Position numbers and translations under genes: made by a program
In this document: positions 13,107 to 50,302 of the stretch, in pieces
How positions within the stretch are numbered: the first letter of the stretch is position 1
Layout: each line of letters begins with the position of its first letter
Origin: Escherichia coli
GTDB taxonomy: Bacteria; Pseudomonadota; Gammaproteobacteria; Enterobacterales; Enterobacteriaceae
Assembly (NCBI RefSeq): GCF_041248615.1
Contig: NZ_CP158426.1
Strand: one strand, 5' to 3'
DNA: 64,000 nt
The notes under the pieces: generated by a model
Databases searched by the model: none
What the model was told of the DNA's origin: nothing
The model's input: only the letters and a program-made list of their open reading frames with translations

Positions 13107-13721
13107 TTAGCCGATTTTGTTACGTTGTGCGAATGTGTAAAGATCCATCAGTGATTTACATTCTAATTTTTCCATCAGGCGACTTTTATAAGTGCTGACA
13201 GTTTTGTTGCTGATGAACATTTTTTCCGCAATGTCATTATTATCCTTGCCATCAAGAATATATCGCATGACACTAATTTCTTGTTTCGATAAGGAGTCGA
13301 GTTTTTGCTGGTCGGACGTTAAACTTCCAACAAACCGGTTGAGAGAGAAGGGGAAATAGCAGTAGCCATTTTTTGCAGCTTCAATAGCCGCAATGATATT
13401 GTTCATGCCTTCTTTTTTACTCACGAATCCATTAGCGCCAGCATCAGCACAATGTTTCCCGTAAAAATGGTCATTTTTAGCGGAGACGATAATAATAATT
13501 CCGCTATATTGGCGCTTCCTCAGCGTTTCTAACACCTGGATACCGTTAACTCCGGGGATATCGACATCAATGATGACGATATCAGGTTTAAGTGTTTCCA
13601 CCCGCTGAACGGCACTTCCCCCTTCAGTCAACTCCGCTAAGATTTCAATATCGTTTTTGATCAATAAATTACGAATTGCTGCGATAGCAAGAGGATGGTC
13701 ATCAATAATTATTGCGTTCAT
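13107..13721 (-). CDS. evgA: NarL/LuxR-family response regulator EvgA (204 aa)
   Basis: 204-aa ORF MNAIIIDDHPLAIAAIRNLL with receiver domain and C-terminal LuxR helix-turn-helix; 4 bp upstream of evgS. Confidence 0.95.
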   Translation of the reverse strand: MNAIIIDDHPLAIAAIRNLLIKNDIEILAELTEGGSAVQRVETLKPDIVIIDVDIPGVNGIQVLETLRKRQYSGIIIIVSAKNDHFYGKHCADAGANGFVSKKEGMNNIIAAIEAAKNGYCYFPFSLNRFVGSLTSDQQKLDSLSKQEISVMRYILDGKDNNDIAEKMFISNKTVSTYKSRLMEKLECKSLMDLYTFAQRNKIG

Positions 13722-18292: not shown

Positions 18293-18520
18293 TTAGATGA
18301 TAAATGACAGCAGGAATGTGCCCGCCAGAGCGACGACTGAAGCGATAAATGTCGCGGTCGTATAGTATTTAAATGTTTCATTGAGCGTAGCGTCGCAATA
18401 TTGCTTCACCAGCCAGAAAAGCGAGTCCGTAACGATCGTGCAGCCAATCGCACCTGAACCGATAGCAATCGCAATAATTTCCGGGCTGATGTCGGGATAC
18501 AGCGGCAGCACAATGATCCA
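18293..18520 (-). pseudogene. dsdX: dsdX D-serine permease (GntP family), 3' fragment only (~72 codons)
   Basis: Minus-strand frame encodes a GntP-family C-terminal TM segment ...[59 protein letters not shown]; in-frame stop at 18524-18526, no upstream dsdX sequence, cscR begins ~230 bp further on. Confidence 0.8.
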
Positions 18521-18753
18521 TATTTATATTTTCTTCTCCAGATTGGCGATGCCAGTTGGCATGTTTTACCTACTTGCCTACATGGTTACTCGTTGGCGAG
18601 AACAGAGGCGGAATTGGGTACAATTGTCCGGGAATTATTGTTATTTTTTATTGTATTGCCGTGTCGGGTGATAGGGCGTCGAGAATATCGTTGGATCTCG
18701 CCAGTGACGTCTGTTTCTGCTACAGTGCCCGTTTTACGGCAAACGGCTTGGGT

Positions 18754-19749
18754 ATGGCTTCATTAAAGGATGTCGCACGCCTGGCGGGAGTGTCGATGAT
18801 GACAGTCTCCCGGGTGATGCATAATGCAGAATCTGTGCGTCCTGCAACGCGTGATCGCGTATTGCAGGCAATCCAGACCCTGAATTATGTTCCTGATCTT
18901 TCCGCCCGTAAGATGCGCGCTCAAGGACGTAAGCCGTCGACTCTCGCCGTGCTGGCGCAGGACACGGCCACCACTCCTTTCTCTGTTGATATTCTGCTTG
19001 CCATTGAGCAAACCGCCAGCGAGTTCGGCTGGAATAGTTTTTTAATCAATATTTTTTCTGAAGATGACGCTGCCCGCGCGGCACGTCAGCTGCTTGCCCA
19101 CCGTCCGGATGGCATTATCTATACAACAATGGGGCTGCGACATATCACGCTGCCTGAGTCTCTGTATGGTGAAAATATTGTATTGGCGAACTGTGTGGCG
19201 GATGACCCAGCGTTACCCAGTTATATCCCTGATGATTACACTGCACAATATGAATCAACACAGCATTTGCTCGCGGCGGGCTATCGTCAACCGTTATGCT
19301 TCTGGCTACCGGAAAGTGCGTTGGCAACAGGGTATCGTCGGCAGGGATTTGAGCAGGCCTGGCGTGATGCTGGACGAGATCTGGCTGAGGTGAAACAATT
19401 TCACATGGCAACAGGTGATGATCACTACACCGATCTCGCAAGTTTACTCAATGACCACTTCAAATCTGGCAAACCAGATTTTGATGTTCTGATATGTGGT
19501 AACGATCGCGCAGCCTTTGTCGCTTATCAGGTTCTCCTGGCGAAGGGGGTACGTATCCCGCAGGATGTCGCCGTAATGGGCTTTGATAATCTGGTTGGCG
19601 TCGGGCATCTGTTTTTACCGCCGCTGACCACAATTCAGCTTCCACATGACATTATCGGGCGGGAAGCTGCATTGCATATTATTGAAGGTCGTGAAGGGGG
19701 AAGAGTGACGCGGATCCCTTGCCCGCTGTTGATCCGTTGTTCCACCTGA
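18754..19749 (+). CDS. cscR: LacI-family sucrose operon repressor CscR (331 aa)
   Basis: Product begins MASLKDVARLAGVSMMTVSRVMHN (helix-turn-helix) at the internal ATG 18754, followed by a periplasmic-binding-protein-like sugar-binding domain; the longer upstream ORF start is rejected. Confidence 0.9.
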   Translation: MASLKDVARLAGVSMMTVSRVMHNAESVRPATRDRVLQAIQTLNYVPDLSARKMRAQGRKPSTLAVLAQDTATTPFSVDILLAIEQTASEFGWNSFLINIFSEDDAARAARQLLAHRPDGIIYTTMGLRHITLPESLYGENIVLANCVADDPALPSYIPDDYTAQYESTQHLLAAGYRQPLCFWLPESALATGYRRQGFEQAWRDAGRDLAEVKQFHMATGDDHYTDLASLLNDHFKSGKPDFDVLICGNDRAAFVAYQVLLAKGVRIPQDVAVMGFDNLVGVGHLFLPPLTTIQLPHDIIGREAALHIIEGREGGRVTRIPCPLLIRCST

Positions 19750-19756
19750 TATTATG

Positions 19757-29470: not shown

Positions 29471-29713
29471 AATGTTGCAAGTATGTTTCTATCTTTTTTC
29501 AAATATGATCTAAGAAACGCGATCCAGCTGGCAAAATTTGGAGGTGGCGCACTCATGGATTCGGGTGAATTTTGTTTTAGATCATTTTTAAGTGTGATTT
29601 CGGTCACTTATCCGATTTTGCAGAATTAACAACTGGAGCAGCACTTTCCGGAAGCGTAAAATATCCACAACGTTTATCTGGCACCTTGGGTGCACATACA
29701 GAGGAAATCAACG

Positions 29714-29998
29714 ATGAGTAAATGTAGTGCTGATGAAACCCCGGTTTGCTGCTGTATGGATGTTGGCACCATTATGGACAACTCCGACTGCACCGCGTCT
29801 TATAGCCGCGTGTTTGCAAACCGCGCAGAAGCAGAACAAACGCTGGCGGCGCTGACTGAAAAAGCCCGTAGCGTGGAATCCGAACCGTGCAAAATCACCC
29901 CAACTTTCACTGAAGAGTCTGACGGTGTGCGCCTGGATATCGATTTCACTTTTGCCTGCGAAGCTGAAATGCTGATCTTCCAGCTGGGTCTGCGTTAA
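29714..29998 (+). CDS. yfcZ: UPF0381 small protein YfcZ (94 aa)
   Basis: MSKCSADETPVCCCMDVGTIMDNSDCTASYSRVF; AGAGGAAA Shine-Dalgarno before ATG 29714; the longer ORF from 29690 is rejected. Confidence 0.85.
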   Translation: MSKCSADETPVCCCMDVGTIMDNSDCTASYSRVFANRAEAEQTLAALTEKARSVESEPCKITPTFTEESDGVRLDIDFTFACEAEMLIFQLGLR

Positions 29999-30016
29999 TT
30001 CCTCTCGGGTACATAC

Positions 30017-30050
30017 GCCCCTGTCAGTTGTTGGCAGGGGCGTTTTATTT
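30017..30050 (+). terminator. intrinsic terminator after yfcZ
   Basis: GCCCCTG-tcagttgttgg-CAGGGGC followed by GTTTTATTTT. Confidence 0.75.
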
Positions 30051-30134
30051 TCTCTTCTACTTTTCTCTCTGTGTCATAGCTCCCACTTTCCCTTTTCTCC
30101 ATTTGGCTAAATGTAAAAAAATGGTTAAGACTAT

Positions 30135-30152
30135 GATCAGGTCAGACCACTT
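30135..30152. promoter_or_regulatory. FadR operator in the fadIJ promoter
   Basis: GATCAGGTCAGACCACTT about 30 bp upstream of the fadI start. Confidence 0.6.
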
Positions 30153-30178: not shown

Positions 30179-31489
30179 ATGGGTCAGGTTTTACCGCTGG
30201 TTACCCGCCAGGGCGATCGTATCGCCATTGTTAGCGGGTTACGTACGCCTTTTGCCCGCCAGGCGACGGCTTTTCATGGCATTCCTGCTGTTGATTTGGG
30301 GAAGATGGTGGTAGGCGAACTGCTGGCACGCAGCGAAATTCCCGCCGAAGTGATTGAACAACTGGTCTTTGGTCAGGTCGTACAAATGCCGGAAGCCCCC
30401 AACATTGCGCGTGAAATTGTTCTCGGTACCGGAATGAATGTGCATACCGATGCTTACAGCGTCAGCCGCGCTTGCGCTACCAGTTTCCAGGCGGTTGCAA
30501 ACGTCGCAGAAAGCCTGATGGCGGGAACTATTCGCGCGGGGATTGCCGGTGGGGCAGATTCCTCTTCCGTATTGCCAATTGGCGTCAGTAAAAAACTGGC
30601 GCGCGTGCTGGTTGATGTCAACAAAGCTCGAACCATGAGCCAGCGCCTGAAACTCTTCTCTCGCCTGCGTTTGCGCGACTTAATGCCGGTGCCTCCGGCA
30701 GTGGCGGAATACTCTACTGGCTTGCGGATGGGCGACACCGCTGAACAAATGGCGAAAACCTACGGTATTACTCGCGAACAGCAAGATGCATTAGCGCACC
30801 GTTCGCATCAGCGAGCCGCTCAGGCGTGGTCAGACGGTAAACTCAAAGAAGAGGTGATGACTGCCTTTATCCCTCCTTATAAACAACCGCTTGTCGAAGA
30901 CAACAATATTCGCGGTAATTCCTCGCTTGCCGATTACGCAAAGCTGCGCCCGGCGTTTGATCGCAAACACGGAACGGTAACGGCGGCAAACAGTACGCCG
31001 CTGACCGATGGCGCGGCAGCGGTGATCCTGATGACTGAATCCCGGGCGAAAGAATTAGGGCTGGTGCCGCTGGGGTATCTGCGCAGCTACGCATTTACTG
31101 CGATAGATGTCTGGCAGGACATGTTGCTCGGTCCGGCCTGGTCAACGCCGCTGGCGCTGGAACGTGCCGGTTTGACAATGAGCGATCTGACATTGATCGA
31201 TATGCACGAAGCCTTTGCAGCTCAGACACTGGCGAATATTCAGTTGCTGGGTAGCGAACGTTTTGCTCGTGATGTACTGGGGCGTGCACATGCCACTGGC
31301 GAAGTGGACGATAGCAAATTTAACGTGCTTGGCGGTTCGATTGCTTACGGGCATCCCTTCGCGGCGACCGGCGCGCGGATGATTACCCAGACATTGCATG
31401 AACTTCGCCGTCGCGGCGGTGGATTTGGTTTAGTGACCGCCTGTGCTGCGGGTGGGCTTGGCGCGGCAATGGTTGTGGAGGCGGAATAA
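30179..31489 (+). CDS. fadI: 3-ketoacyl-CoA thiolase FadI (436 aa)
   Basis: Thiolase fold with active-site Cys context and C-terminal [14 protein letters not shown]; stop overlaps the fadJ start (TAATG). Confidence 0.95.
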
Positions 31490-33633
31490 TGGAAATGGCA
31501 TCAGCGTTTACCCTTAATGTCCGTCTGGACAACATTGCTGTTATCACCATCGACGTACCGGGTGAGAAAATGAATACCCTGAAGGCGGAGTTTGCCTCGC
31601 AGGTGCGCGCCATTATTAAGCAACTCCGTGAAAACAAAGAGTTGCGCGGCGTGGTGTTTATCTCCGCGAAACCAGACAACTTCATTGCTGGCGCAGACAT
31701 CAACATGATCGCCAACTGCAAAACGGCGCAAGAAGCGGAAGCACTGGCGCGGCAGGGTCAACAGTTAATGGCGGAGATTCATGCTTTGCCCGTTCCGGTT
31801 ATCGCGGCTATTCATGGCGCTTGCCTGGGCGGTGGGCTGGAGTTGGCGCTGGCGTGCCACGGTCGCATGTGTACTGACGATCCTAAAACGGTGCTCGGTT
31901 TGCCTGAAGTACAACTTGGATTATTACCCGGTTCAGGCGGCACCCAGCGTTTACCGCGCCTGATAGGTGTCAGCACAGCATTGGAGATGATCCTCACCGG
32001 AAAACAACTTCGGGCGAAACAGGCATTAAAGCTGGGGCTGGTGGATGACGTTGTTCCGCACTCCATTTTGCTGGAAGCCGCTGTCGAGCTGGCGAAGAAG
32101 GATCGCCCATCTTCCCGCCCTCTACCTGTACGCGAGCGTATTCTGGCGGGGCCGTTAGGTCGTGCGCTGCTGTTCAAAATGGTCGGCAAGAAAACAGAAC
32201 ACAAAACTCAAGGCAATTATCCGGCGACAGAACGCATCCTGGAGGTTGTCGAAACGGGATTAGCGCAGGGCTCCAGCAGCGGTTATGACGCCGAAGCTCG
32301 GGCGTTTGGTGAACTGGCGATGACGCCGCAATCGCAGGCTTTGCGTAGTATCTTTTTTGCCAGTACGGAAGTGAAGAAAGACCCCGGCAGTGATGCGCCG
32401 CCTGCGCCATTAAACAGCGTGGGAATTTTAGGTGGTGGCTTGATGGGCGGCGGTATTGCTTACGTCACTGCTTGTAAAGCGGGGCTTCCGGTCAGAATTA
32501 AAGATATCAACCCGCAGGGCATAAATCATGCGCTGAAGTACAGTTGGGATCAGCTGGAGGGCAAAGTTCGCCGTCGTCATCTCAAAGCCAGCGAACGTGA
32601 CAGACAGCTGGCATTAATCTCCGGAACGACGGACTATCGCGGCTTTGCCCATCGCGATCTGATTATTGAAGCGGTGTTTGAAAATCTCGAATTAAAACAA
32701 CAAATGGTGGCGGAAGTTGAGCAAAATTGCGCCGCTCATACCATCTTTGCTTCGAACACGTCATCTTTACCGATTGGCGATATCGCCGCTCACGCCGCGC
32801 GACCGGATCAAGTTATCGGCCTGCATTTCTTCAGCCCGGTAGAAAAAATGCCGCTGGTGGAGATTATTCCTCATGCGGGGACATCGGCGCAAACCATCGC
32901 TACCACAGTAAAACTGGCGAAAAAACAGGGTAAAACGCCAATTGTCGTGCGTGACAAAGCCGGGTTTTACGTCAATCGCATTTTAGCACCTTACATTAAT
33001 GAAGCTATCCGCATGTTGACCGAAGGTGAACGGGTAGAGCACATTGATGCCGCGCTGGTGAAATTTGGTTTTCCGGTAGGCCCAATCCAACTTTTGGATG
33101 AGGTAGGAATCGACACCGGGACTAAAATTATTCCTGTACTGGAAGCCGCTTATGGAGAACGTTTTAGCGCGCCTGCAAATGTTGTTTCTTCAATTTTGAA
33201 CGACGATCGCAAAGGCAGAAAAAATGGCCGGGGTTTCTATCTTTATGGTCAGAAAGGGCGTAAAAGCAAAAAACAGGTCGATCCCGCCATTTACCCGCTC
33301 ATTGGCGCACAAGGGCAGGGGCGACTCTCCGCACCGCAGGTAGCTGAACGGTGTGTGATGTTGATGCTGAATGAAGCAGTACGTTGTCTGGACGAGCAGG
33401 TTATCCGTAGCGTGCGTGACGGAGATATTGGCGCGGTATTTGGCATTGGTTTTCCGCCATTTCTCGGTGGTCCGTTCCGCTACATCGATTCTCTCGGTGC
33501 GGGTGAAGTGGTTGCAATAATGCAACGACTGGCCACGCAGTATGGTTCCCGTTTTACCCCTTGCGAGCGTTTAGTCGAGATGAGCAAGCGTGGGGAAAGT
33601 TTTTGGAAAACAACTGCAACTGACCTGCAATAA
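31489..33633 (+). CDS. fadJ: multifunctional fatty-acid oxidation protein FadJ (enoyl-CoA hydratase / 3-hydroxyacyl-CoA dehydrogenase), 714 aa
   Basis: N-terminal crotonase domain and C-terminal NAD-binding 3-hydroxyacyl-CoA dehydrogenase domain ([13 protein letters not shown]). Confidence 0.95.
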
Positions 33634-48998: not shown

Positions 48999-49034
48999 GG
49001 CTGATCGGACTTGTTCGGCGTACAAGTGTACGCT
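48999..49034. promoter_or_regulatory. fabB promoter operators: FadR site (CTGATCGGACTTGTTCG) next to the FabR palindrome (GCGTACAAGTGTACGCT)
   Basis: GGCTGATCGGACTTGTTCGGCGTACAAGTGTACGCT about 50 bp upstream of the fabB ATG. Confidence 0.7.
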
Positions 49035-49081: not shown

Positions 49082-50302
49082 ATGAAACGTGCAGTGATTA
49101 CTGGCCTGGGCATTGTTTCCAGCATCGGTAATAACCAGCAGGAAGTCCTGGCATCTCTGCGTGAAGGACGTTCAGGGATCACTTTCTCTCAGGAGCTGAA
49201 GGATTCCGGCATGCGTAGCCACGTCTGGGGCAACGTAAAACTGGATACCACTGGCCTCATTGACCGCAAAGTTGTGCGCTTTATGAGCGACGCATCCATT
49301 TATGCATTCCTTTCTATGGAGCAGGCAATTGCAGATGCTGGCCTCTCCCCGGAAGCTTACCAGAATAACCCGCGCGTTGGCCTGATTGCAGGTTCCGGCG
49401 GCGGTTCCCCGCGTTTTCAGGTGTTCGGCGCTGACGCAATGCGCGGCCCGCGCGGCCTGAAAGCGGTAGGCCCGTATGTGGTCACCAAAGCGATGGCATC
49501 CGGCGTTTCTGCCTGCCTCGCCACGCCGTTTAAGATTCACGGCGTTAACTACTCCATCAGCTCCGCATGTGCGACTTCCGCGCACTGTATCGGTAACGCA
49601 GTAGAGCAGATCCAACTGGGCAAACAGGACATCGTGTTTGCTGGTGGCGGCGAAGAGCTGTGCTGGGAAATGGCTTGTGAATTCGACGCGATGGGTGCGC
49701 TGTCTACCAAATACAACGACACCCCGGAAAAAGCCTCCCGTACTTATGACGCTCACCGAGACGGTTTCGTTATCGCTGGCGGCGGCGGTATGGTGGTGGT
49801 CGAAGAACTGGAACACGCGTTGGCACGTGGTGCTCATATCTACGCTGAAATCGTTGGCTACGGCGCAACGTCTGATGGCGCAGACATGGTTGCTCCGTCT
49901 GGCGAAGGCGCAGTGCGTTGCATGAAGATGGCGATGCACGGTGTTGATACCCCAATCGACTACCTGAACTCCCACGGTACTTCGACTCCGGTTGGCGACG
50001 TGAAAGAGCTGGCGGCTATCCGTGAAGTGTTCGGCGATAAGAGCCCGGCGATTTCTGCAACCAAAGCAATGACCGGTCACTCTCTGGGCGCTGCTGGCGT
50101 ACAGGAAGCTATCTACTCTCTGCTGATGCTGGAACACGGCTTTATCGCCCCGAGCATCAACATTGAAGAGCTGGACGAGCAGGCTGCGGGTCTGAACATC
50201 GTGACCGAAACGACCGATCGCGAACTGACCACCGTTATGTCTAACAGCTTCGGCTTCGGCGGCACCAACGCCACGCTGGTAATGCGCAAGCTGAAAGATT
50301 AA
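49082..50302 (+). CDS. fabB: 3-oxoacyl-ACP synthase I, FabB (406 aa)
   Basis: [22 protein letters not shown]...; active-site Cys in SSACATSAH and C-terminal [10 protein letters not shown]. Confidence 0.97.

Follow-up and report, generated by a model that had tools for sequence, protein, structure and literature searches.

A predicted FadR operator covers the transcription start site of the Escherichia coli fadIJ promoter and is conserved across enterobacterial genera

The 17-bp sequence at positions 30136..30152 of a 64,000-nucleotide stretch of the Escherichia coli chromosome (hereafter the window) is very probably the FadR operator of the sigma-70 promoter of fadIJ. We favor this reading because motif score, promoter position, deep conservation and the literature all agree. 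The box is almost certainly the already documented FadR site of this operon, a textbook feature, and we infer this identity from the position described for that site. Specifically, a review (PMC9329746) describes fadIJ as a direct target of FadR repression whose LCFA induction depends on FadR, and it places the FadR site over the transcription start site (TSS), citing Campbell, Morgan-Kiss & Cronan 2003. Comparative-genomics regulon reconstructions (including PMC5343134) additionally list fadIJ together with fadL as FadR targets common to Enterobacterales, Vibrionales and Shewanella. A literature search with the box sequence in either orientation returned no relevant match, and among the papers covered we found no FadR EMSA, footprint or ChIP at the fadI box. 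Control of this kind couples the expression of beta-oxidation genes to acyl-CoA availability, which is textbook biology, and the sequence-only reading that our analysis followed up had picked a true regulatory site without the use of any tools. The FadR-fadIJ interaction is presumably also listed in RegulonDB and EcoCyc.

The sequence-only reading had proposed as operator an 18-mer, GATCAGGTCAGACCACTT, lying about 30 bp before the fadI ATG. This 18-mer is found at exactly 30135..30152 on the + strand, and the 26 nt that separate its end from the ATG at 30179 agree with the proposed distance. Its leading G falls outside of the 17-bp FadR box. The + strand sequence of the box is ATCAGGTCAGACCACTT and its - strand sequence is AAGTGGTCTGACCTGAT, the latter being closer to the FadR consensus. 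The box is an imperfect palindrome centered on A30144 that is AnCTGGTCnGACCtgTT-like and carries three mismatches to the FadR consensus, with a left half-site of AGGT as opposed to the consensus TGGT. In crystal structures of FadR-DNA complexes the TGGT/ACC cores are the contacted bases. Downstream of the box lie fadI (30179..31489, + strand), the first gene of the operon, coding for a 3-ketoacyl-CoA thiolase, and fadJ (31489..33633, + strand), the second gene, which codes for a multifunctional hydroxyacyl-CoA dehydrogenase / enoyl-CoA hydratase and whose start overlaps the fadI stop.

RefSeq annotation of K-12, like that of an identical genome, gives the local gene order on the E. coli chromosome as fadL(-), yfcZ(+), fadI(+), fadJ(+). 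A 3.7 kb region spanning the box exhibits 100% identity in two RefSeq genomes and is present in 5425 of 5426 complete genomes. An 81-bp query matched 5297 of the 5426 E. coli genomes at 95% identity or better, a count that holds no per-base information on the box. The window strain carries a SNP relative to K-12 that is located 5' of the box and outside of it (CTCCATTTGGCT in the window strain versus CTCCACTTGGCT in K-12). Elsewhere the window holds csc sucrose-utilisation genes at 18293..24154 (a LacI-family regulator, cscA, a kinase and an MFS transporter). Since their neighbors are a tRNA-Arg gene and a truncated dsdX pseudogene, they form a strain-variable island, in which no K-12 gene names occur. 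Between mlaA and fadL there is also an ORF at 26390..27637 (- strand) for a hypothetical protein of 415 aa, at a place where K-12 has yfdF (352 aa).

Three details of the sequence-only reading call for correction, namely the strand of the better consensus match (the - strand, as described above), the 'anaerobic' label of the operon (discussed below), and the placement of the box in a divergent interval between fadL and fadI. The genes fadL (28002..29342, - strand) and fadI are in fact separated by yfcZ (29714..29998, + strand), both fadL and yfcZ being as annotated in RefSeq, and by a strong intrinsic terminator hairpin after yfcZ at 30015..30043 (+ strand) that consists of a 13-bp stem followed by TTTTATTTT. 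This terminator divides the yfcZ and fadIJ transcription units. The fadL operators are located in the divergent spacer of fadL and yfcZ at a distance of at least 668 bp from the fadI box. Site 1, AGCTGGTCCGACCTATA, occupies 29452..29468 (- strand), which corresponds to -25..-9 of the fadL TSS at window position 29443, and site 2, CACTGGTCTGATTTCTA, occupies 29428..29444 (- strand), which corresponds to -1..+16; the fadL TSS was taken from the Kim et al. 2012 table that is also the source of the fadI TSS. The idea that fadIJ and fadL share control by FadR, which had been put forward together with the divergent interval, is nonetheless supported by the score of the motif, its position in the promoter, its conservation and published work. 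We also note that a distal yfcZ TSS at 29503 (+ strand, 10 reads; Kim 2012) puts fadL site 1 at -51..-35 with its center at -43, a placement that resembles the FadR activating position at fabA.

The position of the box relative to the promoter is that of a repressor site. The supplementary TSS table of Kim et al. 2012 (PMC3415461) places the fadI TSS, supported by 3 reads, at an A at 30139 on the + strand, 40 nt 5' of the ATG, with a listed upstream sequence that ends ...GACTATGATCA. The numbering used by Park et al. 2013 (PMC3798270) implies a fadI start at 30137. The FadR box consequently spans -3..+14 from the TSS at 30139 or -1..+16 from the Park start, so that it occupies the -10/+1 region of the promoter of a gene for fatty-acid metabolism, as at repressed genes, with the 3-read support of the TSS applying to this placement. 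From this TSS and from conservation we place the -10 hexamer AAGACT at 30127..30132 (+ strand); in an alignment of 23 genera its A at -11 is invariant (column A90) and its T at -7 nearly so (column T94, at least 90%). The -35 hexamer assigned from the TSS is TTGGCT at 30103..30108 (+ strand, conservation 0.88), giving an inferred -35 to -10 spacer of 18 bp. Judged by these hexamers (-35 TTGGCT, -10 AAGACT), the predicted fadIJ promoter is weak.

The promoter is probably CRP-dependent. A CRP-like site, TGTGTCATAGCTCCCA, is present at 30070..30085 with two mismatches to TGTGA-N6-TCACA, and its center at -61.5 from the fadI TSS corresponds to a class I activation position. Its second half-site, TCnCA, and the CTTT that follows it are conserved across genera, and by simple arithmetic the spacer should contain ~0.075 such matches by chance. 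A CRP site in the fadIJ promoter is mentioned in the review PMC9329746, where it is attributed to Li et al. 2019; the main text of that source contains no mention of the fad genes. We tentatively propose that 30070..30085 is the CRP site of the fadIJ promoter, and it may be the one that is attributed to Li et al. 2019.

A second repressor site adjoins the FadR box. The ArcA box mapped by Park et al. 2013, ATGTAAAAAAATGGTTAAGAC, consists of two direct repeats at 30111..30131 (+ strand), extends over the spacer and the -10 region of the promoter, and stops 4 bp short of the FadR box. Its conservation across 23 genera is 0.84, and the presence of this box accounts for the strong conservation (0.84) of the promoter spacer. 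According to the supplements of Park et al. 2013 (PMC3798270), ArcA gives a ChIP peak at fadI, its box scores 18.9 bits and is numbered '-26 to -6', and fadIJ expression rises 10.2-fold without ArcA. The fadIJ promoter thus has the features of an ArcA-repressed promoter, with box mapping and conservation computed by us and with ChIP occupancy and derepression taken from PMC3798270. Given that ArcA represses fadIJ ~10-fold under anaerobiosis from a box directly upstream, the label 'anaerobic beta-oxidation operon' that the sequence-only reading gave to fadIJ appears dated and questionable. Read from 5' to 3', the promoter comprises the CRP-like site, the -35 hexamer, the ArcA box (spanning spacer and -10 region) and the FadR box on the start site.

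We consider classical operator occlusion the best account of how the box acts. In the absence of long-chain acyl-CoA a dimer of FadR, a GntR family protein, would bind the box, and from its location at about -3 to +14 it would block RNA polymerase at the start site, at the step of either open-complex formation or initiation, thereby repressing fadIJ. Upon import and activation of fatty acids, the acyl-CoA formed would bind FadR, causing it to leave the DNA and the operon to be derepressed. Under anaerobiosis ArcA-P would separately block the -10 region and the spacer.

In order to score the motif we used a position weight matrix (PWM) built from seven EMSA-validated sites (fadL1, fadL2, fadD1, fadD2, fadBA, fabA and fabB), with site sequences being the EMSA probes in Table 2 of PMC4259882 and with fadI excluded. 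Among 128,000 positions on both strands the box was the best match that is not a training site, which bears out the match to the FadR consensus noted in the sequence-only reading; it scored 14.29 bits when read on the - strand, as against 9.84 bits on the + strand. The three top matches in the window were the training sites fabB, fadL1 (29452..29468) and fadL2 (29428..29444). When the PWM was built from only the four sites that lie out of the window, the top three matches were fabB, the fadI box and fadL1. Leave-one-out scores of the validated sites span 6.6-17.2 bits, a range that includes the score of the box, and by PWM the fadI box falls between fadBA and fadL1. A search for the consensus AGCTGGTCNGACCTGTT allowing up to three mismatches returned exactly three matches in the window, which are fadL site 1, the fadI box and the fabB site; 0.41 matches are expected, and three or more were obtained in 1 of 100 shuffles. 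The core CAGGTCNGACC is unique within the window, with 0.02 occurrences expected. The window holds three FadR-regulated promoters, those of fadL, fadIJ and fabB, with the known fabB site (GGCTGATCGGACTTGTT, 48999..49015, + strand) being 67 bp 5' of the fabB start at 49082 and separate from the fadIJ promoter.

The score alone is not significant on the scale of the whole window. Its chance probability is 6e-6 per position, equivalent to 0.77 matches expected in 64 kb, and a first-order random sequence of 64 kb attains this PWM score in 49% of cases. These figures would fit a functionless chance match to a degenerate consensus, as would the occurrence of a comparable match inside a coding sequence. 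The latter is the second-best match outside the training set, a FadR-like 17-mer (TGCTGGTCGGACGTTAA, 13306..13322, 13.3 bits) within evgA, which we treated as a probable chance match. In the 180-bp yfcZ-fadI spacer, however, only 0.002 matches of the score of the fadI box are expected. The significance of the match therefore rests on its location and not on its score alone.

One scan of species-representative genomes with FadI yielded 80 loci, of which 78 were usable, from Escherichia, Citrobacter, Salmonella, Enterobacter, Klebsiella, Kluyvera, Cedecea, Kosakonia, Serratia, Rahnella, Yersinia, Hafnia, Photorhabdus, Pantoea and other genera; the occurrence of fadR in the genomes compared was taken from PMC5343134. 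The 11-bp core CAGGTCnGACC (CAGGTCNGACC in the window) is present within 400 bp 5' of fadI in 77 of the 78 loci, which represent more than 30 enterobacterial genera, and the remaining locus has a single change in the core, reading GAGGTCAGACC. The site is thus conserved 5' of fadI orthologues, and just one further copy of the core was found elsewhere in ~570 kb of these loci. In the 23-genus alignment the box columns C100-C105 and G107-C110 are invariant. Mean identity to E. coli over the 23 genera is 0.94 for the box and 0.98 for its core, as compared with 0.38-0.47 for the DNA 5' of the promoter and 0.50, with many indels, for the 5' UTR from the box to the ribosome-binding site, making the FadR box the most conserved stretch of the yfcZ-fadI spacer. 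This near-perfect conservation while the flanks diverge excludes the chance reading, and FadR-dependent expression of fadIJ has moreover been published (PMC9329746); we assign a chance match virtually no probability.

The pattern of variation in the box also resembles that of a FadR site. Only the central base (A, C, T or G) and the outer flank (ACTT, TCTT or TGTT) differ between genera, at positions where the validated FadR sites differ as well, and in distant genera the outer flank shifts toward the FadR consensus CCTGTT. The distance from the box to the ATG ranges from 15 to 158 nt, whereas the distance from the box to the -10 block shifts by only 0-3 nt. A nearly constant distance to the promoter combined with a variable distance to the ATG indicates that the box is tied to the promoter rather than to translation, as expected of a transcriptional operator. 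Among the individual loci, three from Buttiauxella (L021, L024 and L046) have the box ~155 nt from the ATG as opposed to ~30 nt elsewhere, which implies a 5' UTR insertion, and in Photorhabdus the box is ~65 nt from the fadI ATG.

Conservation by itself could also reflect something other than a repressor, such as a 5'-terminal RNA element in the fadIJ mRNA, or constraint on the discriminator or the initial transcribed sequence. The box does start at the TSS, and the only invariant departure from the FadR consensus (CAGGT as opposed to CTGGT, an A for a T) is A30139, the mapped +1 nucleotide, which is conserved in all 78 loci. A departure from consensus at just this nucleotide suggests that the promoter, too, constrains part of the box. 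The coincidence of this invariant deviation with +1, one of only two mildly new points of our analysis, suggests that A30139 may be a compromise between initiation and repressor affinity. As an explanation of the whole box, however, a non-repressor role fares poorly. An RNA structure was rejected given that the folding of the fadIJ 5' UTR does not surpass that of shuffled sequence (z = -0.70), and the remainder of the 5' UTR is poorly conserved and rich in indels. Initial transcribed regions are not normally invariant across families over 11 bp, and what is conserved is a palindrome in the DNA whose central base is free to change, as is the case for independently validated FadR sites. We regard a non-repressor role as having a very slim chance, with the operator reading remaining the one we prefer.

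The other regulator to be considered, and the one for which independent evidence exists at this spacer, is PdhR, a pyruvate-sensing member of the FadR subfamily of GntR proteins, which could bind the box instead of or besides FadR and so integrate pyruvate and acyl-CoA signals. The PdhR box, AATTGGTnnnACCAATT, and the fadI box have the same GGT-N3-ACC core, which is typical of FadR-subfamily GntR regulators. A published PdhR study reported a PdhR gSELEX-chip peak in the fadI/yfcZ spacer and a 1.6-4-fold decrease of fadI/fadJ mRNA in a pdhR mutant, and it assigned the binding to a 7/14 box inside fadI codons 2-7 (30183..30199). The FadR box agrees with the PdhR consensus in 10 of 14 positions, which is the best match in the spacer and the 5' coding end, and several other PdhR gSELEX boxes in Table 1 of that study are FadR-like, with TGGTcngACC occurring at fumD/pykF, ybcV/ybcW and acpP. 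That the best PdhR-like sequence beneath the published peak is the FadR box constitutes the second mildly new point; the resolution of the gSELEX peak is too coarse to separate the FadR box from the 7/14 box.

Several observations count against PdhR as the regulator for which the box is conserved. A 10/14 match to the PdhR consensus is reached at 21 positions of the window and is not significant alone, and an agreement of 10/14 also means that the flanks of the two boxes match only in part. The variation of the fadI box across genera tracks FadR, its flanks drifting toward the FadR consensus (CCTGTT) and not toward ACCAATT. PdhR has furthermore been reported as an activator of fadIJ, a role that is hard to square with binding at -3..+14, and in the published study its EMSA with a fadI probe gave a smear. 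Overall we consider an involvement of PdhR at the box in either form improbable. That PdhR replaces FadR there is very unlikely; PdhR might bind alongside FadR. A related proposal is that the fadIJ operator is common to both proteins, each binding the GGTcagACC core, such that pyruvate and acyl-CoA status compete at one 17-bp site. We think this unlikely as well, if somewhat less so. If true, a shared operator would account for the PdhR gSELEX peak more convincingly than does the 7/14 box within fadI, and some of the PdhR 'activation' could then be displacement of FadR, the tighter repressor, or could be indirect.

As a FadR operator, the box is readily placed among known systems. The fadIJ (yfcYX) operator of the literature (Campbell, Morgan-Kiss & Cronan 2003; PMC9329746) has the same gene, promoter, TSS-overlapping position and regulator, and the window box is most likely the very same site; there is no substantive difference between the two, the SNP of the window strain being outside of the box. 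Much like the fadI box, fadL site 2 and the fadBA operator are 17-bp imperfect palindromes with TGGT..ACC cores that overlap -10/+1, with fadL site 2 at -1..+16 compared with -3..+14 for the fadI box. Repression through fadL site 2 and the fadBA operator is relieved by acyl-CoA (PMC9329746), and we propose the same for fadI. The fadI box differs in its left half-site, which is AGGTC as opposed to the TGGTC of fadL site 2 and fadBA, and fadI has a single FadR site whereas fadL and fadD have two each. The FadR sites of fabA and fabB are bound by the same protein and belong to the same motif family as the fadI box; they sit 5' of the promoter core, at about -40, and activate, in contrast to the fadI box, which is on the start site and represses. 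A further parallel is the fadH promoter (Feng & Cronan 2010), which is like fadIJ a beta-oxidation promoter with ArcA and FadR boxes on its core. According to the title of the paper the ArcA and FadR sites of fadH overlap, whereas those of fadIJ are adjacent, with a 4-bp gap between the end of the ArcA box at 30131 and the start of the FadR box at 30136.
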